Part shown: in pieces, positions 2,290 through 35,516 of the stretch
Layout of the letters: each line of letters begins with the position of its first letter
Numbering within the stretch: the stretch's first letter is position 1
Translations under genes and position numbers: made by a program
The notes under the pieces: generated by a model
What the model saw: the letters and a program-made list of their open reading frames with translations, nothing else
Told to the model about the DNA's origin: nothing
The model's database searches: none
Assembly: GCF_009792235.1 (NCBI RefSeq)
Contig: NZ_CP046973.1
Coordinates: 1,473,062-1,513,061 of the forward strand
Direction of reading: 5' to 3'
Source of the DNA: Microcystis aeruginosa FD4
GTDB taxonomy: Bacteria > Cyanobacteriota > Cyanobacteriia > Cyanobacteriales > Microcystaceae
DNA: 40,000 nt

Positions 2290-3710
2290 TTGACATCCTC
2301 ACCGCCGTAAACGGACGGTGATTCCCAAACCTCACGATTTGGGTTTCTGCTTCTTTCCCTTGCGGGGTTCCGCACCTGCCTTAACAGATTTACTCTGTTC
2401 TGGTCTTATGGTCGCTCTACAGACTGACACCGCAAGTCCTGCGGCCAAAATGTTTTTACTGGCGTTAATATCTCGGTCATGGTGAGTCCCGCAGTCTGGA
2501 CAATCCCATTCTCGAATATTTAACGGCATTTTCTCAGCAATATACCCGCAATTACTACACCTTTTAGAACTGGGAAACCATCTATCTATTTCGATGTAAT
2601 TTCTCCCATACCAACGGCATTTATAGGCTAATTGTCGAGTTATTTCTCCCCAACTAACGTCAGATATTGCCTGAGATAATTTCGGGTTTTTGACCAGATT
2701 CTTGACGGCTAAATTCTCAACCACAATCGTTTGGTTTTCACGAACTAATTGAGTGGTTAGCTTGTGTAAATGGTCTTTTCTACTATCAGTAATTTGGGCG
2801 TGAATCTTGGCTACTTTGATTCTCGCTTTTTCCCGATTTTTTGACCCTTTCTGTTTTCTAGAAAGGCTTTTTGGGTCCTTTCGCAGTCTCCGATAATGCT
2901 TTTTAAAATGCTTGGGATTAGATACCTTGTCTCCATCGCTGGTAATCACAAGGCTACTAATTCCTAAGTCAATTCCGATGGCTTTATCGGTTGGGGGTAA
3001 GGGTTTAATTGTTGGGTCATCAAATCTTATTGAGATATGCCAACGTCCAGAAGGATGTAATCTGACTGTTACTGTGCTTGGTTCACAAGCTTCTGGTATT
3101 TGTCTTGACCATCGAATAGGTAAAGGTTCTGTGCATTTAGCTAAATAGATTTGTTTGTCTTTGAACTTAAAAGCAGATTTGGTAAATTCGGCACTTCCTC
3201 CTTGATGTTTTTTCTTAAAGTTAGGATACTTAGTACGACCAGCAAAGAAATTGGTAAAAGCTGTTTGTAGGTGTCTTAACCCTTGTTGCAAAGGTACACA
3301 GCTTACTTCGTTGAGAAAGTCTAATTCTTCTTGCTTTTTCCACTCGGTTAGCATTGAAGAGGTTTCAGTATATCCTACTCTTTCTTGCTTTTCGTACCAT
3401 GCTTGTGTTCTGAGATGGAGAGCTTTATTGTAAACCAATCTTACACAGCCCAAAGTGCGCCGCAATAGCGACTCTTGTTCGGGTGTGGGGTAAAATCGAA
3501 ACGAATAGGCTTTTTCCATGTCTCACATTTTAGCATATATTTGGTAAATGCGCTATAGCAAATAATGGGTTATTTAGGACGCTTTCAATTTTCAAACTCT
3601 TATCTGAACAGGGTTTCAGCGATGGATTGTCCTAAGCACCTTGGTCTTTGCTATAGTATTTAACGGTAAAGCCGTCGTAGAACGACGGGGTTTCAGACCC
3701 AAAATTTTCG
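2290..3710 (-). mobile_element. IS200/IS605-family tnpB-only element (IS1341 group), complete copy
   Basis: The right end at 2290 reads TTGACATCCTCACCGCCGTAAACGGACGGTG, i.e. ...GTCAA on the element strand plus a hairpin. The left end has the hairpin CCGTCGTAGAACGACGG at about 3672-3688 and terminates ...CCCAAAATTTTCGAT at 3710. A second copy of the same right end occurs at 39353. Confidence 0.8.
2332..3519 (-). CDS. tnpB: TnpB/OrfB RNA-guided endonuclease-like transposase accessory protein
   Basis: 395 aa. N-terminus YSFRFYPTPEQESLLRRTLGCVRLVYNKAL, RuvC-like GIDLG and VVENL motifs, zinc finger CSNCG...CPDCG and a DRDINASKNI tail. Confidence 0.92.
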   Translation of the reverse strand: MEKAYSFRFYPTPEQESLLRRTLGCVRLVYNKALHLRTQAWYEKQERVGYTETSSMLTEWKKQEELDFLNEVSCVPLQQGLRHLQTAFTNFFAGRTKYPNFKKKHQGGSAEFTKSAFKFKDKQIYLAKCTEPLPIRWSRQIPEACEPSTVTVRLHPSGRWHISIRFDDPTIKPLPPTDKAIGIDLGISSLVITSDGDKVSNPKHFKKHYRRLRKDPKSLSRKQKGSKNREKARIKVAKIHAQITDSRKDHLHKLTTQLVRENQTIVVENLAVKNLVKNPKLSQAISDVSWGEITRQLAYKCRWYGRNYIEIDRWFPSSKRCSNCGYIAEKMPLNIREWDCPDCGTHHDRDINASKNILAAGLAVSVCRATIRPEQSKSVKAGAEPRKGKKQKPKS

Positions 3711-3932: not shown

Positions 3933-4325
3933 ATGGAACCGATAACAGTGGCGACAATTGTTGCTTTGGTATTTCAGACTACTGTAGAAAAATTTACTGA
4001 AGCTGCTCTAGAAAAAATTAATACTTTGCGGCAAATTATCTGGAATAAACTTAAAGCTAATCCTAATGCTGAAAAAGCTTTACAAGCTGCTGAAAAAGGG
4101 TCAAAAACTGATCTAGAAAAAGTGGCAGATTATTTAAAGGTTGCCATGAATGATGAAGCAGATTTTGCCGAAAAAGTCAAGGGTTTAGCAACAGAAATTC
4201 AATCCTTGAAAATTCAGGATAATAGTAGTATGAACCAGGCTAATTCTGGAGGTCAAAATTTCCAGAATCAGGGGGAGGTTGGTGAAGTTTATCAAGCAGC
4301 AACTATAAACATCAATAAAACCTGA
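3933..4325 (+). CDS. 130-aa helical N-terminal domain, in frame with the downstream NB-ARC/TPR ORF and separated from it by a single TGA
   Basis: Same frame as 4479..7235. Hydrophobic N-terminal helix MEPITVATIVALVFQTTV, three predicted helices, and a Q/N/G-rich tail GGQNFQNQGEVGEVYQAATININ. Confidence 0.6.
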   Translation: MEPITVATIVALVFQTTVEKFTEAALEKINTLRQIIWNKLKANPNAEKALQAAEKGSKTDLEKVADYLKVAMNDEADFAEKVKGLATEIQSLKIQDNSSMNQANSGGQNFQNQGEVGEVYQAATININKT

Positions 4326-4478: not shown

Positions 4479-7235
4479 ATGGGAGGCATAGGTAAAACCG
4501 AACTAGCCAGACAATTTGGCTGGCAACAATGGCGAGAAAAAGCCTATCCAGGGGGTATATGTTGGTTAAATGTGGCAGAGAGTGATGGCGGTTTTATCGG
4601 TACTTCTATTTTAGATTTTGCCCGAGTACATTTCAAATTAACTTTACCGGATGAGGGAGAATTAGACATAAAAATTCGTTATTGTTGGCAAAATTGGTTA
4701 GCGGGAAATGTCTTAATTATTTTTGATGATGTACGGGATTATCAGCAAATTAAGTATTATTTACCACCGCAAGAGGAGAAACGCTTTCAGGTTTTAATTA
4801 CCACTCGCAAGGAATATTTATCAGCGACAATTGCGACTTTTCGGGTAGAAGTTTTAAAAGAAGAAGATGCACTTGATTTATTGCGTTCCTACCTCGGAGA
4901 TAACAGAATTGACACACAAATCGAAGAAGCTAAATTATTGTGTCAGGATTTGGGTTATTTGCCCTTAGGGTTAGAATTGGTGGCAAGGTTGCTGGTACGA
5001 CGACAGGATTGGAAAATTAGCAAAATACGGCAGAAGTTAGCAGAAAACGGCTTAGAGGAGCAAATTTTAGAGAAAAATCCCAAGTTTCATGGGGAAATGA
5101 CAGCAGAAAGAGGGTTGAAAGCTGCCTTTAATCTCAGTTGGGAGGAGTTGAATAGCGAACCAGATGCCCAAATTTTGGCACTTTACCTCAGTTTATTCGC
5201 TCTTGCGCCCTTTTTCAAGGAGATGATTCTGGATTTATTTCCCGATGAGGATGGGGATACAGTAGAGGAATGGTTAACCGATAGCTTAGTTCACCTGAGC
5301 TTAGTTCAGGATAAGGGTGAGGGTTGGTATGAAATTCATCCCCTGTTGCGTCGCTATTTTCGGGATAAGTTAGAAGCATCACCCCACGCAGAACCAGCAA
5401 AGCGCCGCTATTGCGGTATTATGGCCAAAAAATCGGCAGAAATGCCACAGGATGTGACTGTAGAAATCGTTGAAGATTTTAAACCTTTCCTTCTCCATCT
5501 GCAAGCATCTGTCGGGGAATATCCAGAATATATCGCTGATGAGGATTTAGCTCGGTCCTATACGGGTTTAGCTCGTTATTATGAAGGACAAGGATTGTAT
5601 GCTATTGCTGAACCTTACTATCAAAATTGTTTAACCGCAACTCGAACCCGTTTAGGAGACAATCATCCCGATGTGGCAAGTTCCCTCAACAATTTAGCAC
5701 TATTGTACGAATCCCAAGGCAGATACACAGAAGCGGAACCTCTCTATCTAGAAGCATTAGATTTGTATAAACGACTCTTAGGAGACAATCATCCCGATGT
5801 GGCAACTTCCCTCAACAATTTAGCAGGATTGTACGATTCCCAAGGCAGATACACAGAAGCGGAACCTCTCTATCTAGAAGCATTAGATTTGTATAAACGA
5901 CTCTTAGGAGACAATCATCCCGATGTGGCAACTTCCCTCAACAATTTAGCAGGATTGTACGATTCCCAAGGCAGATACCCAGAAGCAGAGCCTCTCCTTC
6001 TAGAAGCATTAGATTTGAGAAAACGACTCTTAGGAGACAATCATCCCGATGTGGCAACTTCCCTCAACAATTTAGCAGGATTGTACGATTCCCAAGGCAG
6101 ATACACAGAAGCGGAACCTCTCTATCTAGAAGCATTAGATTTGAGAAAACGACTCTTAGGAGACAATCATCCCGATGTGGCAACTTCCCTCAACAATTTA
6201 GCAGGATTGTACGATTCCCAAGGCAGATACCCAGAAGCAGAGCCTCTCCTTCTAGAAGCATTAGATTTGAGAAAACGACTCTTAGGAGACAATCATCCCG
6301 ATGTGGCAACTTCCCTCAACAATTTAGCAGGATTGTACGATTCCCAAGGCAGATACACAGAAGCGGAACCTCTCTATCTAGAAGCATTAGATTTGATAAA
6401 ACGACTCTTAGGAGACAATCATCCCGATGTGGCAACTTCCCTCAACAATTTAGCAGGATTGTACGATTCCCAAGGCAGATACCCAGAAGCAGAGCCTCTC
6501 CTTCTAGAAGCATTAGATTTGAGAAAACGACTCTTAGGAGACAATCATCCCGATGTCGCACTTTCCCTCAACAATTTAGCAGGATTGTACAAATCCCAAG
6601 GCAGATACACAGAAGCGGAACCTCTCTATCTAGAAGCATTAGATTTGATAAAACGACTCTTAGGAGACAATCATCCCCTTGTGGCAACTTCCCTCAACAA
6701 TTTAGCAGGATTGTACGATTCCCAAGGCAGATACACAGAAGCGGAACCTCTCTATCTAGAAGCATTAGATTTGAGAAAACGACTCTTAGGAGACAATCAT
6801 CCCGATGTCGCACTTTCCCTCAACAATTTAGCAGTATTGTACCGTTCCCAAGGCAGATACACAGAAGCGGAACCTCTCTATCTAGAAGCATTAGATTTGA
6901 GAAAACGACTCTTAGGAGACAATCATCCCGATGTGGCACTTTCCCTCAACAATTTAGCATATTTGTACCAATACCAAGGCAGATACACAGAAGCGGAACC
7001 TCTCTATCTAGAAGCATTAGATTTGAGAAAACGACTCTTAGGAGACAATCATCCCGATGTGGCAACTTCCCTCAACAATTTAGCAGGATTGTACGATTCC
7101 CAAGGCAGATACCCAGAAGCGGAACCTCTCTATCTAGAAGCTTTAGCAATTGCCGAGCAAGCTTTAGGGGAGAATCATCCTAATACAATAATATTTCGGG
7201 AAAATTATGCTATCTGTCTTCGTCGTGGGGGATAA
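4479..7235 (+). CDS. STAND NTPase (NB-ARC) fused to a 13-unit TPR array; NLR-like. The frame is open from 4326, and the listed ATG lies inside the Walker A motif
   Basis: Walker A GMGGIGKTELA and Walker B LIIFDDV. GYLPLGLELVA resembles the NB-ARC GLPLA motif. These are followed by 42-aa TPR units (LGDNHPDVATSLNNLAGLYDSQGRYTEAEPLYLEALDLRKRL). Confidence 0.85.
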   Translation: MGGIGKTELARQFGWQQWREKAYPGGICWLNVAESDGGFIGTSILDFARVHFKLTLPDEGELDIKIRYCWQNWLAGNVLIIFDDVRDYQQIKYYLPPQEEKRFQVLITTRKEYLSATIATFRVEVLKEEDALDLLRSYLGDNRIDTQIEEAKLLCQDLGYLPLGLELVARLLVRRQDWKISKIRQKLAENGLEEQILEKNPKFHGEMTAERGLKAAFNLSWEELNSEPDAQILALYLSLFALAPFFKEMILDLFPDEDGDTVEEWLTDSLVHLSLVQDKGEGWYEIHPLLRRYFRDKLEASPHAEPAKRRYCGIMAKKSAEMPQDVTVEIVEDFKPFLLHLQASVGEYPEYIADEDLARSYTGLARYYEGQGLYAIAEPYYQNCLTATRTRLGDNHPDVASSLNNLALLYESQGRYTEAEPLYLEALDLYKRLLGDNHPDVATSLNNLAGLYDSQGRYTEAEPLYLEALDLYKRLLGDNHPDVATSLNNLAGLYDSQGRYPEAEPLLLEALDLRKRLLGDNHPDVATSLNNLAGLYDSQGRYTEAEPLYLEALDLRKRLLGDNHPDVATSLNNLAGLYDSQGRYPEAEPLLLEALDLRKRLLGDNHPDVATSLNNLAGLYDSQGRYTEAEPLYLEALDLIKRLLGDNHPDVATSLNNLAGLYDSQGRYPEAEPLLLEALDLRKRLLGDNHPDVALSLNNLAGLYKSQGRYTEAEPLYLEALDLIKRLLGDNHPLVATSLNNLAGLYDSQGRYTEAEPLYLEALDLRKRLLGDNHPDVALSLNNLAVLYRSQGRYTEAEPLYLEALDLRKRLLGDNHPDVALSLNNLAYLYQYQGRYTEAEPLYLEALDLRKRLLGDNHPDVATSLNNLAGLYDSQGRYPEAEPLYLEALAIAEQALGENHPNTIIFRENYAICLRRGG
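5652..7163 (+). repeat. Twelve near-identical 126-bp tandem repeats encoding the TPR units, with a partial 252-bp higher-order periodicity
   Basis: TTAGGAGACAATCATCCC recurs at 5652 + 126k for k = 0 to 11. A diverged cap unit starts at 7164. Confidence 0.95.
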
Positions 7236-7253
7236 TTAAACATAAAACTAGCT

Positions 7254-7700
7254 ATGAAAATCTACTTAGATACTAGCGCACTCCATCGTATTTTTGATGA
7301 TCGCTCTCAGGTACGCATTGCTCTTGAAGCTTTAGCAGTACAATCTATTCTATTGCTAATTCAAGAACGTACAGTCGAACTAATTATATCAGACGCACTT
7401 GCCTATGAAATCTCTCGCAATCCTTATCCAGAAAATAAAATGACTGCTTTTAGCATTTTACGACTTGCCAACTCTTATCAAGTATTGACAACTGAAACGT
7501 TAAATCGTGGACAACAACTAGAAACAAATGATAACATCGGTAAACTAGATGCTTTACATCTAGCCTGTGCCGAATCTCAACAGGTTGATTTCTTTATTAC
7601 TTGCGATGATCGCCTCATCAAACGCTATAAAGGTATAATGCGTATATGTAATCCTGTCGAATTTATTTTACTAATGACTGAATCAGGAGATAAATCATGA
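7254..7700 (+). CDS. PIN-domain nuclease (toxin-like)
   Basis: 148 aa. Acidic PIN signature positions: IYLDTSAL, LDALHLA, ITCDDRL. Starts 18 bp after the NLR-like stop. Confidence 0.75.
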   Translation: MKIYLDTSALHRIFDDRSQVRIALEALAVQSILLLIQERTVELIISDALAYEISRNPYPENKMTAFSILRLANSYQVLTTETLNRGQQLETNDNIGKLDALHLACAESQQVDFFITCDDRLIKRYKGIMRICNPVEFILLMTESGDKS

Positions 7701-7924
7701 AAATTGACTTCCCTAGTTTACCTCGTAACACTGAATTGCATCGTGAAGCTATTGAAATTCTAAACGAACGAATGGGTATCGCCAAAGCTGCCATCTTTAT
7801 GAGTGATGCCTTTTGGAAACCAACTGACTATCTAGAAATTAAACATAATCTGTTTGCTGATGAAACTGTTGCTAGTCTTTATGAAAAAGTGGTACTTTGG
7901 CGTGAGCAAACTCAAAAACCCTAA
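7697..7924 (+). CDS. 75-aa partner of the PIN protein (putative antitoxin, family unrecognised)
   Basis: ATGA start/stop overlap with 7254..7700 indicates translational coupling. No motif recognised. Confidence 0.5.
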   Translation: MKIDFPSLPRNTELHREAIEILNERMGIAKAAIFMSDAFWKPTDYLEIKHNLFADETVASLYEKVVLWREQTQKP

Positions 7925-7936
7925 TATTACAGTAAT

Positions 7937-8380
7937 ATGTAGCAACTTTCCTCAACAATTTAGCAGAATTATACTCATCTCAAGGAAGGTACATATAGCG
8001 GAAGTCATAAGTCAGAACCCCTCTATTTACAAGCTTTAGAATTGTATAAACGACTCTTAGGAGACAATCATCCCCTTGTGGCACAATCTCTCAACAATTT
8101 AGCATACTTGTACCAATCCCAAGGCAGATACCCAGAAGCAGAACCTCTCTATCTAGAAGCATTAGATTTGATAAAACGACTCTTAGGAGACAATCATCCC
8201 TCTGTGGCACAATCCCTCAACAATTTAGCAGAATTGTACAAATCCCAAGGCAGATACACAGAAGCAGAACCTCTCTATCTAGAAGCTTTAGCAATTGCCG
8301 AGCAAGCTTTAGGGGAGAATCATCCTAATACAATAATATTTCGGGAAAATTATGCTATCTGTCTTCGTCGTGGGGGATAG
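7937..8380 (+). pseudogene. Displaced or decayed copy of the NLR-like TPR C-terminus (remnant 2)
   Basis: TPR-unit homology runs from about 7937 with an in-frame TAG and a 12-bp insertion. The distal part is intact (ORF 8042..8380). The last 113 bp (8267-8379) match 7122-7234 exactly by eye. Confidence 0.75.
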
Positions 8381-8467
8381 CGTCTTAGCTGTGATTGGTG
8401 TGATTATGTCAAGTTTTTAGGAAATTAAACCAGTTTATTCTTAATCAAACTTAAACGGAGAAAATTA

Positions 8468-8710
8468 ATGACAACCAACTTATTAAATAATGCTATTACC
8501 ATAGATAACGAAATTCAACATGGTAAACCAATATTAACAGGAACCCGAATCCCGATCGCCATTGTTATTGGTTCCCTGGCAGGAGGAATGAGCTATGAAG
8601 AAGTCATGGAGGAATATGGAGTTACTCAAGAGCAAATTCTTGCTTCTTTAGCATATTTTTCTGAACTTTTAAATAATGAAATCATTTATCCAATGGAGAA
8701 AACCAGTTGA
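8468..8710 (+). CDS. DUF433-family small protein (antitoxin-like)
   Basis: 80 aa. The GKPILTGTRIPIAIVIGSLAGGMSYEEVMEEY pattern is typical of DUF433. Overlaps the next gene (TTGA). Confidence 0.7.
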   Translation: MTTNLLNNAITIDNEIQHGKPILTGTRIPIAIVIGSLAGGMSYEEVMEEYGVTQEQILASLAYFSELLNNEIIYPMEKTS

Positions 8711-9075
8711 AAATTCGCTTTTTAATTGATCAAGACTGCCCCTTAAGTTTAAGCAACTTGCTAAATTCTAAAGGTTATGACGCTATTCATGTAAAAACCT
8801 CTGGACTAAGTGGCACAAAAGACCCTGAGCTATTTCGATTTGCTCAACGAGAACAGCGAATTATTATTAGCCGTGATTTGGGATGGGCTAATATCAAAAA
8901 TTATCCTCCCAATACCCATTGTGGTCTGATTATTTTACGATTTCCTTTTGAGGCGATAGCGGTAGAAATTAGACAGGTTTTAGAAAATTTTATCAATACC
9001 GTAGATATAGAAGAAATTATTGGCTCAACGGTAATTGTGGATAAAAATAAGTTTAGGATCAGAAAATCTGGTTGA
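8707..9075 (+). CDS. DUF5615 / Mut7-C PIN-like protein (toxin-like partner of DUF433)
   Basis: 122 aa. FLIDQDCP...GYDAIHV...RIIISRDLG...GLIILR pattern. TTG start overlaps the upstream stop. Confidence 0.65.
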   Translation: MKIRFLIDQDCPLSLSNLLNSKGYDAIHVKTSGLSGTKDPELFRFAQREQRIIISRDLGWANIKNYPPNTHCGLIILRFPFEAIAVEIRQVLENFINTVDIEEIIGSTVIVDKNKFRIRKSG

Positions 9076-9211
9076 CAAATTAATAGTGTTCCTAATATAA
9101 ATTAAACAGCGATCGCCACTTTTAAACCTGATAGAAAAACAGCAATTCTTTTACAGTTCATTAAATTGTAATTGCTTTTTTCCTACCCAATAAACCCAAC
9201 AGAATAAACCC

Positions 9212-9469
9212 ATGAATACAGCAACTAAAACCATCAAAGTCTATAACGAAATTATTGAACTAATCGCAGGGGGAACCACTCCCCAATCGGTGATTAACTT
9301 TCATCTTTCCGATACCGCTCAAAATCGCCTAGAAGACCTAATTTATAACGCTAAAAATAATGAACTTACCCAAGAGGAAAAACAGGAACTCGATGCTTAT
9401 TTAATGCTAGAACATATTATGACCCTAGCAAAAGCAAAAGCTCACCAATATCTCAATGGAGCTAACTAA
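9212..9469 (+). CDS. 85-aa small protein coupled to the HNH gene
   Basis: Overlaps the HNH ORF by 14 bp. Helical and acidic. No family recognised. Confidence 0.5.
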   Translation: MNTATKTIKVYNEIIELIAGGTTPQSVINFHLSDTAQNRLEDLIYNAKNNELTQEEKQELDAYLMLEHIMTLAKAKAHQYLNGAN

Positions 9470-9910
9470 AATGGCTCGACCTTACATTAGTGCAGAATTG
9501 CGAAAATTAGTTGCTGAACGTGCCGATTTTCTCTGTGAATATTGCTTAATTTCTGCTTCTGATAGGGTATCTGGCTATCAGGTGGATTATATCATTAGTG
9601 TTAAACATGGGGGAGCAACTTCGGCTGATAATTTGTGCTACGCCTGTATTTTTTGCAATTTACAAAAAGGTACAGATTTAGGCTCAATTAATTGGGAAAC
9701 TGGAGAACTTGTCCGTTTTTTTACCCGCGTCGAGACTTGTGGAAAGAACATTTTCAACTTAAAGAAGCTTTTATCCAACCCATTACTGATATTGGGAACG
9801 TGACAGCTAGGATTTTAGATTTCAATAATAAAGAACGCTTACAAGAGCGACAATTATTAATAGAAATTGCTAAATATCCACCTGTTTCTGCAAAACAAGG
9901 ACTTCTTTAA
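9456..9910 (+). pseudogene. HNH-family endonuclease, frame broken at a T7 run
   Basis: CEYC...DYIISVKHGG...NLCYACIFCNLQKG is an HNH zinc-finger scaffold. ORF 9456..9803 and ORF 9692..9910 join into one protein (ELVRFF|YPRRDLWKEHF) by a -1 shift at TTTTTTT 9716-9722. Confidence 0.65.
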
Positions 9911-9921
9911 ATTTATTTCAT

Positions 9922-10331
9922 AACCTCTTTCTCTACAAGCATTAGAATTGAAAAAACAACTCTTAGGAGACAATCATCCCGATGTGGCAGCTTCCCTCAA
10001 CAATTTAGCATACTTGTACTACTCCCAAGGCAGATACCCAGAAGCAGAACCTCTCTATCTAGAAGCGATTAATATTGCTACCCAAGTATTAGGGGAAAAT
10101 CATCCCCATACCCAAACCTTTTATCAGAATTATCTGAGGATGTTATCGCAATTACCCGAAGCAGAATTAAGACAACGGTTTCCTCTTCCTCATCCGTTGA
10201 ACCCAAAACCCCCTCATCCCCGAAAACAGCTATTAGGAAGATTGATACAAGGGTTTCTGATATTGTTAATTTTACCCTTTTATAGCCTCTGGTTAGTCTT
10301 GCGGTGGTTGCTGAGGAGACTGGGTTTCTAA
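9922..10331 (+). pseudogene. Third, more diverged TPR C-terminal remnant with an alternative cap and a hydrophobic tail
   Basis: Homology to the repeat unit begins at about 9922 (AACCTCTTTCTCTACAAGCATTAGAATTGAAAAAACAACTCTTAGGAGAC). ORF 9948..10331 has no N-terminal domain and ends LILLILPFYSLWLVLRWLLRRLGF. Confidence 0.6.
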
Positions 10332-10370
10332 GGAAACTTCAATGGGGAGTATTTGATGCTTGAAAAGAGG

Positions 10371-12985
10371 GTCTGCATACGCACGGATTTTCCATTATGA
10401 ATATAATATCATGTCAAGGGGCCTTTGTCAAGAGAAAATTTTTTCAAATCAGGATTTAGTAAAACCTAGTAACCCACCACCATCGACTGTGGTTGGTGTG
10501 ATGAACTGTGATTAGGAACCTAGTTAAGAGTGGATTAGAGATGAAGATTGATTGAATGAACCAATCATAGTCAATCACATAATCACATCAATCATAGTTA
10601 AGACCATGGGAAAATAGCGTCTGCATACGCACGGATTTTCCATTATGAATATAATGTCATGTCAAGAGGCTTTTGTCAAGAGAAAATTTTTTCAAATCAG
10701 GATTTAGTAAAACCTAGTAACCCACCACCATCGACTGTGGTTGATGTAATCATCTGATGGACTGTGATTAGGTATCTAGTTGAGAGTTTCTGAAAAGTAA
10801 ATGACTAACCCTAGTGGATTAGAGATGAAGATTGATTGAATGAACCAATCATAGTCAATCACATAATCACATCAATCATAGTTAAGACCGTTGGAAAATA
10901 GCGTCTGCATACGCACGGATTTTCCATTATGAATATAATGTCATGTCAAGAGGCTTTTGTCAAGAGAAAATTTTTTCAAATCAGGATTTAGTAAAACCTA
11001 GTAACCCACCACCATCGACTGTGGTTGGTGTGATGGACTGTGATTAGGAAGCTAGTTAAGAGTGGATTAGAGATGAAGATTGATTGAATGAACCAATCAT
11101 AGTCAATCACATAATCACATCAATCATAGTTAAGACCGTTGGAAAATAGCGTCTGCATACGCACGGATTTTCCATTATGAATATAATGTCATGTCAAGAG
11201 GCTTTTGTCAAGAGAAAATTTTTTCAAATCAGGATTTAGTAAAACCTAGTAACCCACCACCATCGACTGTGGTTGATGTAATCATCTGATGGACTGTGAT
11301 TAGGTATCTAGTTGAGAGTTTCTGAAAAGTAAATGACTAACCCTAGTGGATTAGAGATGAAGATTGATTGAATGAACCAATCATAGTCAATCACATAATC
11401 ACATCAATCATAGTTAAGACCGTTGGAAAATAGCGTCTGCATACGCACGGATTTTCCATTATGAATATAATGTCATGTCAAGAGGCTTTTGTCAAGAGAA
11501 AATTTAACAACATTCAGAAAAACGTAGGGTGCGTTAGACGGCCAAAATTTCTGCTTTAACTTCAAGCTAACAATCCGTCCTAACGCACCACCATCGACAG
11601 TGGTTGATGTAATCATCTGATGGACTGTGATAAGTAAAACCTAGGGTGCGGAATGTGGGTTCAAGCTAACAATCCCTCGTAACCCACCACCATCGACAGT
11701 GATTGGAATGATTGAATGATGAACTGTGATTAGGAACCTAGTTAAGAGTGGATTAGAGATGAAGATTGATTGAATGAACCAATCATAGTCAATCACATAA
11801 TCACATCAATCATAGTTAAGACCATGGGAAAATAGCGTCTGCATACGCACGGATTTTCCATTATGAATATAATGTCATGTCAAGGGGCTTTTGTCAAGAG
11901 AAAATTTTTTCAAATCAGGATTTAGTAAAACGTAGTAACGCAGCACCTATCATCGACTGTGGTTGATGTAATCATCTGATGGACTGTGATTAGGTATCTA
12001 GTTGAGAGTTTCTGAAAAGTAAATGACTAACCCTAGTGGATTAGAGATGAAGATTGATTGAATGAACCAATCATAGTCAATCACATAATCACATCAATCA
12101 TAGTTAAGACCATGGGAAAATAGCGTCTGCATACGCACGGATTTTCCATTATGAATATAATGTCATGTCAAGAGGCTTTTGTCAAGAGAAAATTTTTTCA
12201 AATCAGGATTTAGTAAAACCTAGTAACCCACCACCATCGACTGTGGTTGGTGTGATGGACTGTGATTAGGAAGCTAGTTAAGAGTGGATTAGAGATGAAG
12301 ATTGATTGAATGAACCAATCATAGTCAATCCAATAATCACATCAATCATAGTTAAGACCATGGGAAAATAGCGTCTGCATACGCACGGATTTTCCATTAT
12401 GAATATAATGTCATGTCAAGAGGCTTTTGTCAAGAGAAAATTTTTTCAAATCAGGATTTAGTAAAACCTAGTAACCCACCACCATCGACTGTGGTTGATG
12501 TAATCATCTGATGGACTGTGATTAGGTATCTAGTTGAGAGTTTCTGAAAAGTAAATGACTAACCCTAGTGGATTAGAGATGAAGATTGATTGAATGAACC
12601 AATCATAGTCAATCCAATAATCACATCAATCATAGTTAAGACCATGGGAAAATAGCGTCTGCATACGCACGGATTTTCCATTATGAATATAATGTCATGT
12701 CAAGAGGCTTTTGTCAAGAGAAAATTTTTTCAAATCAGGATTTAGTAAAACCTAGTAACCCACCACCATCGACAGTGATTGGAATGATTGAATGATGAAC
12801 TGTGATTAGGAACCTAGTTAAGAGTGGATTAGAGATGAAGATTGATTGAATGAACCAATCATAGTCAATCACATAATCACATCAATCATAGTTAAGACCA
12901 TGGGAAAATAGCGTCTGCATACGCACGGATTTTCCATTATGAATATAATATCATGTCAAGCCGCCTTTGTCAAGTAGGTTTCTAG
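10371..12985. repeat. ORF-free tandem array: nine full units (248, 284, 248, 284, 402, 288, 248, 284, 256 bp) plus a truncated tenth head
   Basis: GTCTGCATACGCACGG starts units at 10371, 10619, 10903, 11151, 11435, 11837, 12125, 12373, 12657 and 12913. There is no ORF of 60 aa or more on either strand across 2.6 kb. Confidence 0.95.
11528..11589 (-). terminator. Candidate intrinsic terminator (minus strand) inside the expanded array unit
   Basis: Arms GGTGCGTTAGACGG and CCGTCCTAACGCACC give a 14-bp stem with one bulge. On the minus strand the stem is followed by CTACGTTTTTC. The loop is long (about 34 nt), so this is weak. Confidence 0.3.
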
Positions 12986-13006
12986 TCAAAAGGGACTAAG
13001 TTGGAA

Positions 13007-13231
13007 TTACAGCAGACGAATAAATTCTTCTTGTGTCAGTTCAGCATCGCGTAAAATTTTTAAGAGTAATCCTTTCCCGACAGTTTTCCCCCGATGAACA
13101 GGTACGGTGACAACTCTTCCATCTTCATGTTTTAAGCGCAGATGACTTCCTTTTTGTCGGATAGATTGAAACCCTATTCTCGTTAAAGCTTTGATAACTT
13201 CATCACCTGTTAATATCGGTAATTTTGGCAT
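13007..13231 (-). CDS. hicA: HicA mRNA-interferase toxin
   Basis: 74 aa. LTGDEVIKALTRIGFQSIRQKGSHLRLKHEDGRVVTVPVH is the HicA/YcfA signature. Confidence 0.9.
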   Translation of the reverse strand: MPKLPILTGDEVIKALTRIGFQSIRQKGSHLRLKHEDGRVVTVPVHRGKTVGKGLLLKILRDAELTQEEFIRLL

Positions 13232-13452
13232 CAGATAGACACCTTTTCAATTCCAACAAACTCCGACACATCTTCAGGATTGTCATCTTGCAAGCAAAGT
13301 TCAATCACTTCCCTGATATTCTTCATCAATTCATCAATCGTTTCCCCTTGACTGTAACAACCCCGAAGTTGAGGAACTTCCCCAACATAATATCCATCCT
13401 CATCTCGTTCAATGACAACATAAAACTCTCTTTGATGGTTCATGGTTCTCAA
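13231..13452 (-). CDS. hicB: HicB-like antitoxin (N-terminal UPF0150 domain only)
   Basis: 73 aa. FYVVIERDEDGYYVGEVPQLRGCYSQGETIDELMKNIREVIELCL. One-base overlap with hicA. Confidence 0.85.
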   Translation of the reverse strand: MRTMNHQREFYVVIERDEDGYYVGEVPQLRGCYSQGETIDELMKNIREVIELCLQDDNPEDVSEFVGIEKVSI

Positions 13453-13516
13453 TCCTTAAAAAAATTATCGTTATCTAAGCTTTTATTGGCGATTATTGAG
13501 ACTTGAAGAAAGAGGT

Positions 13517-13700
13517 CGTAGGCGCACGGATTTTCCATTGTGAATATAATATCATGTCAAGTCGCCTTTGTCAAGAGAAAATTTGACAACATCCAGAAAA
13601 ACGTAGGGTGCGTTAGACGGCCAAAATTTCCGCTTTAACTTCAAGCTAACAATCCGTCGTAACGCACCACCTATTATCGACTATGATTGAATTAATCACT
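13517..13700. repeat. Solitary diverged array unit (head, hairpin element, one stem arm) on the far side of hicBA
   Basis: GCGCACGGATTTTCCATTGTGAATATAATATCATGTCAAGTCGCCTTTGTCAAGAGAAAATT matches the array head. It is followed by the GGTGCGTTAGACGG...CGTAACGCACC element at 13607-13668. Confidence 0.8.
13546..13574 (-). promoter_or_regulatory. Sigma70-type promoter of hicBA: TTGACA, 17-nt spacer with TGn, then TATTAT
   Basis: On the minus strand the -35 TTGACA is at 13574-13569. The extended -10 TGATATTAT spans 13554-13546. The spacer is 17 nt. The hicB ATG at 13452 lies about 85 nt downstream. Confidence 0.55.
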
Positions 13701-13730
13701 GATAACTCGATCGAATCTAAAAGCTAATTT

Positions 13731-13964: not shown

Positions 13965-13999
13965 GGAGTCAGGAGATAGGAGATAGGAGATAGGAGATT
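13965..13999. repeat. Heptamer microsatellite (GGAGTCA/GGAGATA), 5 units
   Basis: GGAGTCAGGAGATAGGAGATAGGAGATAGGAGATT read directly. Confidence 0.9.
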
Positions 14000-18876: not shown

Positions 18877-20133
18877 TTAAGGCAATGCTACACATAAATT
18901 TTTGCTGACTGAATAAATATATTCAAACAAATAATCCCATTGATTTTCTAAATGTTTAGCCATGTGGTAAGCAAGTAAAGGTGGCACAGCATTACCAATT
19001 AGTTTGTAACCATCCGTAGCCGAAAGTGAATATTTTTCATCTCCCTTGTTTTGTTGACGCACAAATTGAAAATCATCGGGAAAAGTCTGTATTCTCGCAC
19101 ATTCCCGCACAGTTAAACGTCTCATTTTTAATCCTGCTTCTAACTCATTAATTATCTTTCCCCCTAATTCTAAAGATAATCTCCTAAATTCAATATTGCC
19201 GTGATGTTCCGAGCGAATAGTCGGACCTAAACCCTGTAAATTAACCTCGATTTGTCCCTGAGTTTTACCATAATATTTAGCTTTTGAGTAGCTTTTTTGT
19301 GAGAGGTCAAATAACTCATCTTCCGGTTCTGCTAAACCTGATAATATCTGACCCACTGTACTGTAAGTTTTAACTTCATGGGTTGGACGGGGAAAAATAT
19401 CATTATTTTCTAGATGTCCTATCGCTGTCGCTTTTAAATAGGTTTTATTTAAACCGATAAAGATAATTCTTTCCCTAGTTTGGGGAATTCCGTAATCGGG
19501 AGCAAAGAGAAGTTTAGGGATAACTATATATCCATCTTTACCAATGGCACTAAAATCATCTTCAATTATATCTTTAACATTAGCCAAAGAGATTAAACCT
19601 TTGACATTTTCAGCAATAAAAACTTTAGGTAAGGTTAATTCAATAACTCTTTTCATCCAATAATAGAGTTTCCCGCGATTATCCTGAAAACTATCTTCAC
19701 TCTCGTCTAGTAGTTTACCTGTGTGACTTTTGTGAGAATTAAACCCCTTTCTTTTTCCTGAAACACTAAAATCTTGACAGGGAAAACCTCCCGTTACTAC
19801 ATCGATATTACTGGGAAACTGAAACTCTCCTTTTTCTGCTTGTTTGACTAAATCTACAATACTACCCAAGTGAAATACATTTGTTTTATCCCTTTTTTCA
19901 AAGTAGGGAATCCAAGCATTGTGAGCAGCTTTAGTTATATCATTAGCAAAGACAGTTTCAAAAGAAGTACGCGGTAGTTTTAGCCATGGTTCCCGTCTTT
20001 CTACTATCCAATCTTGATGAATATTTTCATTAACACAGTCTTGGTGTACCCAAAAACCTCCCTCTAATCCTAAGTCCATTCCCCCGCAGCCAGAAAATAG
20101 GGATAAAACTCGCTTTTGTTGCCTATTCATCAC
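18877..20133 (-). CDS. DNA (cytosine-5)-methyltransferase
   Basis: 418 aa with the canonical motifs: I FSGCGGMDLG, IV GGFPCQDFS, VI ENVKGL, VIII QTRERIIFIG, TVRECARIQTFPDDF, X GNAVPP. Confidence 0.92.
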   Translation of the reverse strand: MMNRQQKRVLSLFSGCGGMDLGLEGGFWVHQDCVNENIHQDWIVERREPWLKLPRTSFETVFANDITKAAHNAWIPYFEKRDKTNVFHLGSIVDLVKQAEKGEFQFPSNIDVVTGGFPCQDFSVSGKRKGFNSHKSHTGKLLDESEDSFQDNRGKLYYWMKRVIELTLPKVFIAENVKGLISLANVKDIIEDDFSAIGKDGYIVIPKLLFAPDYGIPQTRERIIFIGLNKTYLKATAIGHLENNDIFPRPTHEVKTYSTVGQILSGLAEPEDELFDLSQKSYSKAKYYGKTQGQIEVNLQGLGPTIRSEHHGNIEFRRLSLELGGKIINELEAGLKMRRLTVRECARIQTFPDDFQFVRQQNKGDEKYSLSATDGYKLIGNAVPPLLAYHMAKHLENQWDYLFEYIYSVSKNLCVALP

Positions 20134-20192
20134 TATTGATTAAATGAGTAATTTAATAATATCATACTGATAATCAACTCGATCAAAAGGGA

Positions 20193-20612
20193 TTAATTTA
20201 AAGTTAGTTGATTGGATATTATTAATCGATCCTGCATATCTTCAGAGTCAAGAATATTAGCATCGGTTGCTAAGGCACTAGCGACAATTAAACTATCCCA
20301 AAAAGAAAAACTGTAATGATTGCGGAGTTCAGAGGCTCTTAAAATAATATTGCGATCAAGTTGAATAACAAGACATCCATCGTAAAATTCTTGGATAATT
20401 TGTCTAATTTTAATTTCACTTATTTTAGCTTTTTTGGATAAAACAGAGCAAACTTTATTAATAATTTGCCTAGTGATTAAGATATTTTCCCTGCTAGTTA
20501 AAGCAGCCGCTAGATTGTGTTTTCGTATTTCTTCAGCCTCGTTACACTCTGGGTCTATTAAAAGACGGTATAGCCAGATATTAGAATCACAAAAATAAAG
20601 AGAATTGGTCAT
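20193..20612 (-). CDS. vapC: PIN-domain toxin (VapC-like)
   Basis: 139 aa. N-terminal FCDSNIWLY with the conserved Asp, FWDSLIVASA, and position just downstream of a small antitoxin-like gene. Confidence 0.75.
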   Translation of the reverse strand: MTNSLYFCDSNIWLYRLLIDPECNEAEEIRKHNLAAALTSRENILITRQIINKVCSVLSKKAKISEIKIRQIIQEFYDGCLVIQLDRNIILRASELRNHYSFSFWDSLIVASALATDANILDSEDMQDRLIISNQLTLN

Positions 20613-20614
20613 AA

Positions 20615-20824
20615 TTATAGCTGATGAATTTCTTCCCGATTTAATTGACGAATACCTTGAACAGCAACGGGTTTTTGAGTTAATTCGGCAATGATTCCAG
20701 TGGTTGATATTTTTTTATTTTGTTTGATCACAATAACTTGAACTTCGCTGTCTTCCCTCAAGTCCTGTTGATATTCTTCGGGAATTTCGATGATACCTTG
20801 TTTAATTTTAGCTTTAAATTCCAC
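20615..20824 (-). CDS. vapB: Small antitoxin-like protein upstream of the PIN gene
   Basis: 69 aa, 2-bp gap to the PIN ORF. AKIKQGIIEIPEEY...VQVIVI resembles a swapped-hairpin (AbrB/MazE-like) N-terminus. Confidence 0.55.
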   Translation of the reverse strand: MEFKAKIKQGIIEIPEEYQQDLREDSEVQVIVIKQNKKISTTGIIAELTQKPVAVQGIRQLNREEIHQL

Positions 20825-35028: not shown

Positions 35029-35516
35029 CTTTTTGGCTGTGATCGGTAAACAGTAAACTGAAAACTCAAATCTGATCACTGAATCTCCCCTCTTGCCTCT
35101 GAGAAAAAAAAATGCTATGATGAAAACAAATCGGGCTTCTACGTTGGTGACTGCCTTTCAAGTTTTTTGATCTATGCTTGATTGTGATAAGGGAGCAAAT
35201 AACCAATTCGTGTGGTAGTAAACCGAGCTTGTACTCGGAAACAGAAACGCGTAATATAAGTTCCCACCTGGTTAACCCAGGTCATAAACTTAGGTAAAAC
35301 GGCGTAGCGGTCTTTTCAAGTTTTTCGAGCATATATAGGCCAAATTCTGGTGAGATTCCCTGTACTTCCTTAGTTTTGCCCTCTTGGTTGGTCAAAAAAG
35401 CCAGTATCTGTATTTTTTTCTAGATTAAAGACTGCGGTTTTCGGTAACGCTTGTCACCGCTAAATTGTGACAATCCGGACTACACTAGGGAAAAATTTAT
35501 GAATTATTGTTAAGCA

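Follow-up and report, generated by a model that had tools for sequence, protein, structure and literature searches.

Payload-less cassette units and a promoter-like head in a toxin–antitoxin array behind a STAND gene of Microcystis aeruginosa

Chromosomal integrons and pdif modules typically carry toxin–antitoxin (TA) cassettes. Most integron cassettes lack a promoter; attC sites are imperfect palindromes of 57–141 bp with R″/L″ and L′/R′ boxes (GTTRRRY) and fold as single strands, and a cluster of attC sites without an integrase is referred to as a CALIN; the pdif modules of Acinetobacter plasmids are bounded by XerC/D sites of 28 bp with conserved palindromic arms around a 6-nt spacer and alternating orientation, and often contain TA genes. 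Tandem repeats of another kind form the NsiR1 array of Nostoc/Anabaena, said to have been described by Ionescu et al. in 2010, whose short units reportedly yield a ~60-nt small RNA (sRNA) with a conserved fold from a promoter that is said to be heterocyst-specific and HetR-dependent. Here we describe a tandem array of nine units in a 40,000-nt stretch of the Microcystis aeruginosa FD4 genome (NZ_CP046973.1, positions 1,473,062 to 1,513,061; hereafter the window), in which each unit opens with a promoter-like element, the head, and none holds a TA gene. The array lies downstream of an NB-ARC/TPR gene of the STAND type and is followed by a hicBA TA pair, beyond which a further head is found.

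The closest published precedent is a locus of M. aeruginosa PCC 7806, where a TA module of the ParE/ParD-like type, downstream of MaOC1, an orthocaspase gene, is fenced by 152-bp ‘border repeats’ (PMC7935541). No account of the head or of the cassette arrays presented here was found in the searchable literature, and literature searches on the head sequence and on maps of Microcystis transcription start sites returned nothing usable. The original prediction for this stretch took NsiR1 as its model and proposed a multicopy locus for a structured sRNA, with a protein-titrating or iteron-like array and an unusual satellite as other options. Our preferred reading, to which we assign a probability of roughly 0.6, is that the array is an expansion of empty slots in a TA cassette array that has no integrase, is punctuated by heads and stands behind a STAND gene. 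Unequal homologous recombination or replication slippage between the near-identical heads and further short repeats would have duplicated a pair of 248- and 284-bp units, giving nine empty units where relatives hold one, two, or a TA cassette. Recombination from head to head would also shuffle, duplicate and delete TA cassettes without a dedicated integrase. The head itself would act as a compact, portable promoter module, with its minus strand reading into hicB at head 11 and its plus-strand TATAAT or TATAGT facing the TA operons.

Empty units and their spread

The composition of the units identifies them as cassettes. Unit positions 1–125 align with the head and vapBC 5′ leader of a related Microcystis locus, L004 (101 of 117 positions identical), and positions 117–204 align with the L004 sequence beyond the TPR-gene stop codon (83 of 88 identical), the two parts overlapping in a shared CTGTGRTTG motif. 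Head, stub of the leader and TPR-gene 3′ flank thus make up each unit, which is therefore a cassette without payload, from which the TA genes and the TPR fragment are missing.

The repeats are highly regular (Table 1). The sequence GTCTGCATACGCACGG occurs ten times in the window, on the plus strand only, at 10371, 10619, 10903, 11151, 11435, 11837, 12125, 12373, 12657 and 12913, with spacings of 248, 284, 248, 284, 402, 288, 248, 284 and 256 bp. The 284-bp units exceed the 248-bp units by 8 nt in the first hairpin arm and a 28-nt insertion at 10787–10814. Pairs of units form a 532-bp block that is present in three copies, ~98.5% identical: blocks 10371–10902 and 10903–11434 differ at 7 positions, blocks 10903–11434 and 12125–12656 at 8, and units 2 and 4 are identical in sequence. 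No open reading frame (ORF) of at least 60 aa is present in 10332–13006. The layout proposed in the original prediction is borne out in these respects, with an exact match at all ten unit starts and their spacings, the same absence of ORFs and a real 532-bp higher-order repeat; the repeats were correctly placed and the end of the array was set too early. A 31-nt head core has 11 occurrences in the window where chance would predict 0, and because the eleventh head (13514–13584) lies on the far side of hicA/hicB, the repeat system extends to ~13703 and includes the hicBA cassette, the sole filled cassette in this stretch. Head 10 diverges past the second GTCAAG (+62), at the start of the 3′ end of the hicBA cassette. 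The leader stub that follows head 11 has no TA gene downstream and, like the 402-bp unit 5, contains an inverted repeat resembling a MITE (a miniature transposable element with inverted repeats); unit 5 additionally carries a duplicated leader and arm-1 piece. This MITE-like 15-bp inverted repeat (GGGTGCGTTAGACGG / CCGTCNTAACGCACC) lies in cassette leaders at 11527–11589 and 13606–13668, and a second family of small palindromes, GTAGGGGTAATTCATGAATTACCCCTAC, occupies the equivalent leader position in L014, L015 and L030.

The system appears to be a Microcystis feature. A 23-nt head probe retrieved 10 loci, all from Microcystis, in a search of one genome each for 185,579 species, and a degenerate 31-nt probe retrieved 73 metagenome loci; the head had no match in viral contigs, and BLAST of phage and plasmid collections was empty. 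In all, 93 related Microcystis loci were compared, with short head intervals of 220–450 bp and long ones of 0.6–1.3 kb. They share a general map in which an NB-ARC/TPR gene is followed by n repeats of head and cassette, a terminal head and a housekeeping gene, the last often FrhB-like and, in the window, pmbA. The 215 heads from 84 sources are co-oriented within every locus, and the distance from head to head is bimodal: 63 short intervals (200–460 bp) contain no ORF and comprise 56 distinct sequences, all homologous to the units of the window, whereas 62 long intervals (460–1800 bp) enclose TA operons. Every cassette is bracketed by heads, so that n cassettes come with n+1 of them. The number, kind and order of cassettes vary between strains, with Phd-ParE before hicBA in L001, L005 and L045 and after it in L011 and L036. 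In ten finished or near-finished genomes that encode an identical HicA, the same chromosomal locus bears 2–5 heads, and strain PCC 7806SL has 5 of them at CP020664.1:2,595,992–2,608,216; the empty unit is absent from this locus in most finished genomes sampled, and one of them holds a single unit. As the original prediction stated, the array is not a CRISPR, in which repeats of 23–55 bp alternate with unique spacers of like size: the head measures ~80 nt or more, the ‘spacers’ are either homologous to each other or TA operons, and there is no cas gene in the window.

Comparison of flanking sequences suggests how the array grew. The left junction of the window, from TPR fragment to first head, is found at 97–99.5% identity in six other loci. 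Beyond it, L016 and L036 have two empty units and then hicBA, L033 and L047 have one empty unit, L010 has a TA cassette, and the contig of L013, the 99.5% match, ends within the first unit; the window has nine units after the same junction. The right flank is 100% identical to L076, whose contig begins 86 nt ahead of the head preceding hicA. L013 and L076 belong to one metagenome (VYLQ), and each of them ends inside the array. Short-read assemblies therefore appear to break here, and copy numbers in metagenome contigs are lower bounds. Short direct repeats such as AATCATAG and TAGTTAAGA flank the insertions and deletions that separate the unit classes, a signature of slippage. Taken together, the near-identical 532-bp blocks and the differing copy number point to a recent expansion of the array in the window by unequal recombination or slippage.

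Filled cassettes show changes of their own. Three successive head intervals of 625–628 bp are present in L058, TA cassettes between heads are tandemly duplicated or truncated in this locus and in L004, L069 and L071, and at several loci a Phd antitoxin stands without its toxin. One process seems to act on filled and empty cassettes alike.

An amplified MITE, or a plain satellite unrelated to the neighbouring genes, is the explanation that we hold to be the least likely of all. Microcystis genomes are rich in repeats (PMC2442094), small MITE-like hairpins are inserted in some leaders, and a shorter ~52-nt core of the head (GGTC..CAC..TTTTCCATTRTGAATATARTATCMTGTCAAGTG) occurs alone at four unrelated intergenic sites with no TA genes or TPR fragments nearby (L028 2333, L049 1097, L054 109 and L061 11122). 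However, no terminal inverted repeats or target-site duplications, the hallmarks of a MITE, are seen at the heads, which are clustered and co-oriented at one kind of locus, and the unit body derives from the leader and 3′ flank of neighbouring genes. The fallback of the original prediction, an unusual satellite or amplified element, comes close to the outcome and misses the tie between the unit body and the neighbouring TA leader and TPR flank; of the scattered, MITE-like single copies that it had named as evidence for a mobile element, only the ~52-nt core was found, at the four loci above.

The head and the exchange of cassettes

The conserved core of the head spans positions −9 to +71 relative to GTCTG, ~80 nt in all. 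On the minus strand, where the sequence comes close to a sigma-70 consensus promoter, all 11 heads in the window read TTGACA, a 17-nt spacer with TGn, and C/TATTAT, scoring 10–11 of 12, and on the plus strand they read TATAAT, the promoter-like signature that the original prediction had described. This signature is maintained far beyond the window. Of 175 heads, 166 have the minus-strand TTGACA, and the spacer does not depart from 17 nt; the −10 box takes the form TACTAT, TATTAT or CATTAT, A2 and T6 being retained in 174 heads, and TGn occurs in 142. The plus-strand hexamer is TATAAT in 104 heads and TATAGT in 61. A direct repeat, TGTCAAG-N7-TGTCAAG, is invariant, its first copy being present in 173. 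The head is >90% identical across unrelated cassettes, and conservation stops sharply at both of its edges whatever the flanking context. In the solitary ~52-nt core the second TGTCAAG is missing, and with it the minus-strand −35 box, so that of the two parts it is the plus-strand −10 region that is shared more widely; this core may be a general promoter motif of Microcystis. Because each empty unit carries the putative promoter module of the head, the units are probably transcribed into non-coding RNA. As for the proposal that every unit has a promoter of its own, the conserved promoter-like head in every unit makes transcription of each one plausible.

Two other candidate features were considered. 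A small ORF in the head (MNI.SCQ.AFVKRKF...) was rejected, as it has a context-dependent C-terminus, varies at two positions of codon 8 and is stopped at codon 5 in two heads. An NtcA-like GT-N10-AC box 22 nt upstream of TATCAT was seen by eye only and lacks the A and T of GTA...TAC.

The orientation of the payloads agrees with a promoter role for the head. Five payload types, all of them type II TA operons, are found between heads: Phd/YefM paired with a ParE/YoeB-like toxin, a DUF2281-like antitoxin paired either with a ParE/RelE-like toxin or with a PIN toxin, another antitoxin paired with a second PIN toxin, and HicB paired with HicA; the two PIN types are kinds of VapBC. All types except HicBA always lie on the plus strand of the head, downstream of a head, and the hicBA cassette is always on the minus strand, its hicB turned towards the left edge of the next head. 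Since every cassette type represents one homologous element, this orientation evidence amounts to five independent cases, not dozens.

Variation within the head bears on how cassettes are exchanged. Polymorphisms at head positions 2–14 follow the upstream context and those at 36–53 the downstream context, with at least 11 combinations of left and right context, which places exchange breakpoints inside the head. This could be expected if the head were a site-specific attachment site of the integron attC/attI or Xer/pdif kind, served by a recombinase encoded elsewhere in the genome, with the empty units as recombination products or landing pads. The n+1 direct repeats around n cassettes, the strain-dependent order and content, the sharp edges of the head and a TA cargo of the sort generally known from chromosomal integrons and pdif modules fit such a site as well. 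We nevertheless regard it as very unlikely. No integrase or recombinase is found among the recurrent neighbours of the array loci, which are housekeeping genes: in the ~20 loci where the array abuts the NB-ARC/TPR gene, the other flank holds FrhB-like, ArsP, DUF1611 or pmbA genes. The head contains no GTTRRRY/RYYYAAC boxes, and attC-like folding was rejected, as its single-stranded DNA reaches only −9 to −10 kcal/mol (z = −1 to −1.6). A palindromic operator or recombinase core as a conserved feature was likewise ruled out, since the palindrome CATTATGAATATAATG, with its 4-nt centre, is perfect in only 45 of the 175 heads. Linkage does not switch at a single point either, as positions 6–9 track both contexts, and the cassettes are accompanied by TPR 3′ fragments, a hint of homologous crossovers in the TPR repeats. 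The pattern of head polymorphism fits homologous exchange better than a fixed crossover and, because the sequences are not independent, is suggestive only. Pairwise difference is higher in the head (0.091) than in the middle of the tail (0.030), probably owing to exchange of heads between cassette types. As evidence, the comparison of diversity between head and body was set aside because its outcome is ambiguous.

The same features can be read as those of a decoy array, in which the eleven heads would titrate RNA polymerase or a head-binding regulator and so tune head-driven TA cassettes elsewhere. An identical head stands before TA operons and beside hicB, the TGTCAAG direct repeat is invariant and copy number differs between strains. 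We consider this slightly less probable still than an attachment site: no candidate for such a regulator emerged, the palindrome lacks conservation, most finished genomes have only 2–5 heads, and a common autorepressor is not expected because the cassettes belong to five unrelated antitoxin families. The related iteron or titration idea of the original prediction can be judged by the AATCA motif, which recurs in the second hairpin arm at 10, 8 and 9 nt spacing. Direct reading confirms this recurrence; the 27-nt piece that bears it is dispensable in variants, which weakens the titration idea, and an iteron reading of the spacing was rejected on this ground.

The hairpin and the structured-RNA question

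The most conspicuous feature of each unit is its long imperfect hairpin, the arms of which (10732–10772 and 10845–10881 in unit 2) were recovered by minimum-energy folding as originally predicted. The arms are the two ends of the TPR 3′ flank, and their short GATTG and CAATC repeats are complementary to each other. Arm 1 consists of low-complexity repeats of the GATTG type and differs in length between units; the inner 27 nt of arm 2 are missing from many unit variants of other strains, and ~40% of the 56 variants lack either these 27 nt or the whole tail. Such loss of whole arms argues directly against a required hairpin. Across 28 distinct bodies of full length, pairing in the outer 17-pair stem amounts to 96%; the number of compensatory pairs on the plus strand is 0, and the same values are attained in 500 of 500 shuffles. 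The covariation term of RNAalifold is −0.66 for the plus strand and +0.11 for the minus strand, and the minus-strand consensus fold of 36 diverse tail-plus-head copies has −1.06 kcal/mol, 6 pairs and no covariation, all of these tests having limited power because the sequences vary little. Covariation analysis, which the original prediction had proposed, gave nothing on either strand, and no compensatory change was seen in the stem. Folding energies of whole units are unremarkable (z = −1.2 for the plus strand, −0.4 and −2.0 for the minus strand). With Rfam 15, applied to the window at the gathering threshold and to the array at E values up to 10, nothing in the array reached the gathering score, and only four weak sub-threshold matches (E ≥ 2) were returned. 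We infer that the long hairpin is incidental to low-complexity GATTG/CAATC repeats and not a selected RNA structure.

These results bear directly on the NsiR1-style alternative, in which the units would be sRNA genes, each under a promoter of its own. In one version, a ~130-nt minus-strand RNA would run from TTGACA-17-CATTAT through the reverse complement of the tail and end at a terminator-like hairpin in the 28-nt insertion of the 284-type units (CTAATCCACTAGGGTTAG with a T-rich tail, 10822–10795, weak in strength); in the other, a plus-strand RNA would carry the long hairpin, as the G-T oppositions in its stem would favour. Every head has a near-consensus promoter, variation is lowest in the middle of the tail, which nearly always adjoins a head, and the minus strand has a 134-nt segment of notable stability, considered below. 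Against either version stand the missing Rfam family and the missing covariation, and the insertion with the terminator occurs in only ~12 of the 56 unit variants, just as the 27-nt piece of arm 2 is dispensable. The count of terminator-like hairpins, 4 against 2.2 ± 1.5 expected, and the rarity of the unit at this locus in finished genomes add to the difficulty. The structured-sRNA reading with which the original prediction began is therefore not upheld. We judge it improbable, if less so than any other alternative.

Several observations nevertheless weigh against an expansion of empty slots. Found in 63 of 132 intervals, such units are widespread, and they have one common architecture, so they could be kept for a reason. 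The middle of the tail differs by only 0.030 between pairs, compared with 0.05–0.07 at third codon positions of neighbouring genes, and is followed by a head in 86 of 94 copies. In the 284-type units, the 134-nt minus-strand segment, made up of a 5′ stem-loop, a CU-rich stretch and a weak terminator-like 3′ hairpin with a U-rich tail, folds to −32.2 kcal/mol (z = −2.24). The activity and strand of the head promoter are deduced from consensus matches only, its orientation support comes down to five cassette types (n = 5), and hicBA may own a weak promoter (TCGCCA-17-GATAAT). Finally, homologous and site-specific recombination at the head are indistinguishable from sequence alone. A more novel reading treats the head as both a bidirectional promoter and the recombination substrate of an integrase-free TA-shuffling system, and the units as minus-strand non-coding RNA genes acting on STAND and TA transcripts that contain the tail. 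Each such gene would comprise the head promoter, the conserved CU-rich tail and an optional terminator, with dosage set by the copy number of the array. This combination we place just behind the sRNA locus, as another improbable one.

Surrounding genes and likeness to known systems

The array is embedded in a region of small cassettes behind the STAND gene (Table 1), a layout of STAND gene and then cassettes that recurs in ~20 other loci. The order of the head-less cassettes in the window is repeated in L013, L016 and L036. The small cassettes behind the NB-ARC/TPR gene (4479–10331) each end in a TPR 3′ fragment; these fragments may be left over from recombination in TPR repeats, or may form a reservoir from which the STAND gene could draw alternative 3′ ends. 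An ORF of 130 aa (3933–4325, plus strand) without a Pfam match lies immediately before the STAND gene. Homologues in L085, L089 and L091 are conserved at 130–144 aa and always just upstream of the STAND gene, and this ORF may encode an N-terminal partner or effector of it. The protein encoded by hicA is found in identical form in 664 blocks of a public collection, and an exact-sequence look-up of HicB gave no match.

Table 1. Coordinates of the array, its heads and the surrounding cassettes in the window
Feature	Position	Strand	Remark
NB-ARC/TPR (STAND) gene	4479–7235	+	Cassette region directly downstream, same orientation
Head-less cassettes	7254–10331	+	PIN operon; TPR 3′ fragments; DUF433/DUF5615; unknown ORF and HNH
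TPR 3′ fragment	8042–8380	+	C-terminus same as that of the full NB-ARC/TPR gene
DUF433/DUF5615	8468–9075	+	
Unknown ORF and HNH	9212–9803	+	
TPR 3′ fragment	9948–10331	+	C-terminus unlike that of the full gene; head 1 comes next
Nine tandem payload-less cassette units	10371–12912	+	Three unit pairs are copies of a 532-bp block
Head 1	10362–10441	+	Minus-strand promoter-like site 10431–10403
Head 2	10610–10689	+	Minus strand: −35 TTGACA 10679–10674, 17-nt spacer with TGn, −10 CATTAT 10656–10651
Head 2, plus-strand TATAAT	10650–10655	+	
Unit 2, leader stub common to TA cassettes	10690–10731	+	Alignment to L004
Unit 2, hairpin arm 1	10732–10772	+	Start of the sequence found elsewhere after the TPR-gene stop codon
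28-nt insertion	10787–10814	+	Only in 284/288-bp units
Unit 2, tail ‘middle’	10815–10844	+	Varies least within the units
Unit 2, hairpin arm 2	10845–10881	+	Four AATCA motifs
Head 3	10894–10973	+	Minus-strand promoter-like site 10963–10935
Head 4	11142–11221	+	Minus-strand promoter-like site 11211–11183
Head 5	11426–11505	+	Minus-strand promoter-like site 11495–11467
MITE-like inverted repeat GGGTGCGTTAGACGG ... CCGTCCTAACGCACC	11527–11589	+	In unit 5
Head 6	11828–11907	+	Minus-strand promoter-like site 11897–11869
Head 7	12116–12195	+	Minus-strand promoter-like site 12185–12157
Head 8	12364–12443	+	Minus-strand promoter-like site 12433–12405
Head 9	12648–12727	+	Minus-strand promoter-like site 12717–12689
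Head 10	12904–12974	+	Minus-strand promoter-like site 12973–12945
hicA toxin gene	13007–13231	−	Pfam HicA_toxin, E = 5e-21
hicB antitoxin gene	13231–13452	−	Pfam HicB_lk_antitox; start faces the left edge of head 11
Head 11 (terminal)	13505–13584	+	Minus-strand TTGACA-17-TATTAT 13574–13546 aimed into hicB, ~95 nt off
Leader stub after head 11	13585–13703	+	89.6% identity to the start of the 402-bp unit

Other features of the window and of related cassettes are recorded here in their own right. A TnpB/IS605 OrfB-type gene (2332–3519, minus strand; domains HTH_OrfB_IS605, OrfB_IS605 and Cas12f1-like TNB) lies between an aspartate kinase gene and the STAND gene. The heptamer AGGAGAT is repeated four times at 13971–13998, and in cassettes of other strains runs of the heptamer CTGATAA directly precede antitoxin start codons (L004 630–668, and L010). 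A C-5 cytosine DNA methylase gene (18877–20612, minus strand) adjoins a PIN-domain gene and a small upstream ORF (20615–20824); this is another cluster of the TA or defence type, a few kb from the array. Full-length 6S RNA is found at 35130–35317 on the plus strand (Rfam RF00013, 82.8 bits).

The locus resembles an array of structured sRNAs yet may not be one, and is thus a possible false positive of its kind, with a striking hairpin that comes from low-complexity repeats and is not conserved. What it brings to light is that Microcystis, a bloom-forming genus, holds TA operons as interchangeable cassettes between copies of a promoter-like element, behind a STAND NTPase gene. Should the head turn out to be an active promoter and an exchange site, it would help to explain how Microcystis accumulates and reshuffles an unusually large TA complement, as well as why short-read assemblies break at the locus. 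The head could also serve as a compact native promoter part.

Compared with the NsiR1 array, the locus has in common that it consists of cyanobacterial tandem direct repeats with a promoter-like element in each repeat and no ORF. In contrast, its units are 248–402 bp long, its host forms no heterocysts, the repeated promoter-like element is common to protein-coding TA cassettes as well, and no conserved fold was found on either strand. A type III TA system of the ToxI kind is a poor match too: the repeats of such systems measure ~34–45 nt and stand directly before a toxin gene of the ToxN/AbiQ type with which they are co-transcribed, whereas the units here are 248–402 bp long, the toxin next to them, HicA, belongs to a type II pair, and the array is located downstream of hicA.

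In layout, the array is most like integron and CALIN arrays, with small cassettes between n+1 conserved repeats, TA cargo, and an order and content that vary by strain. Unlike those arrays, it has no intI beside it and its head is not a folded palindrome of the attC type, the conserved core being free of a GTTRRRY/RYYYAAC pair; the repeat is promoter-like and sits on the 5′ side of the cassette, and gene fragments, the TPR 3′ ends, move with the cassettes. With pdif modules it shares small modules, TA pairs among them, that are bounded by a short conserved site and combined in varied ways, whereas its heads are ~80 nt, all direct and chromosomal, and have no conserved palindrome.

The MaOC1 border repeats come from the same genus and likewise place a TA module between identical direct repeats, directly downstream of a large gene of the signalling or death-domain type. 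They differ in repeat sequence (GGGCGAAGCATTCGGA inverted repeats), enclose a single cassette and have no empty tandem units. As in tandem duplication by unequal crossover, the array in the window has three ~98.5% identical 532-bp blocks, a copy number that varies between strains and insertions and deletions bounded by repeats. What sets it apart from plain tandem duplication is that the duplicated unit is a recognisable empty cassette slot with a conserved promoter-like module.

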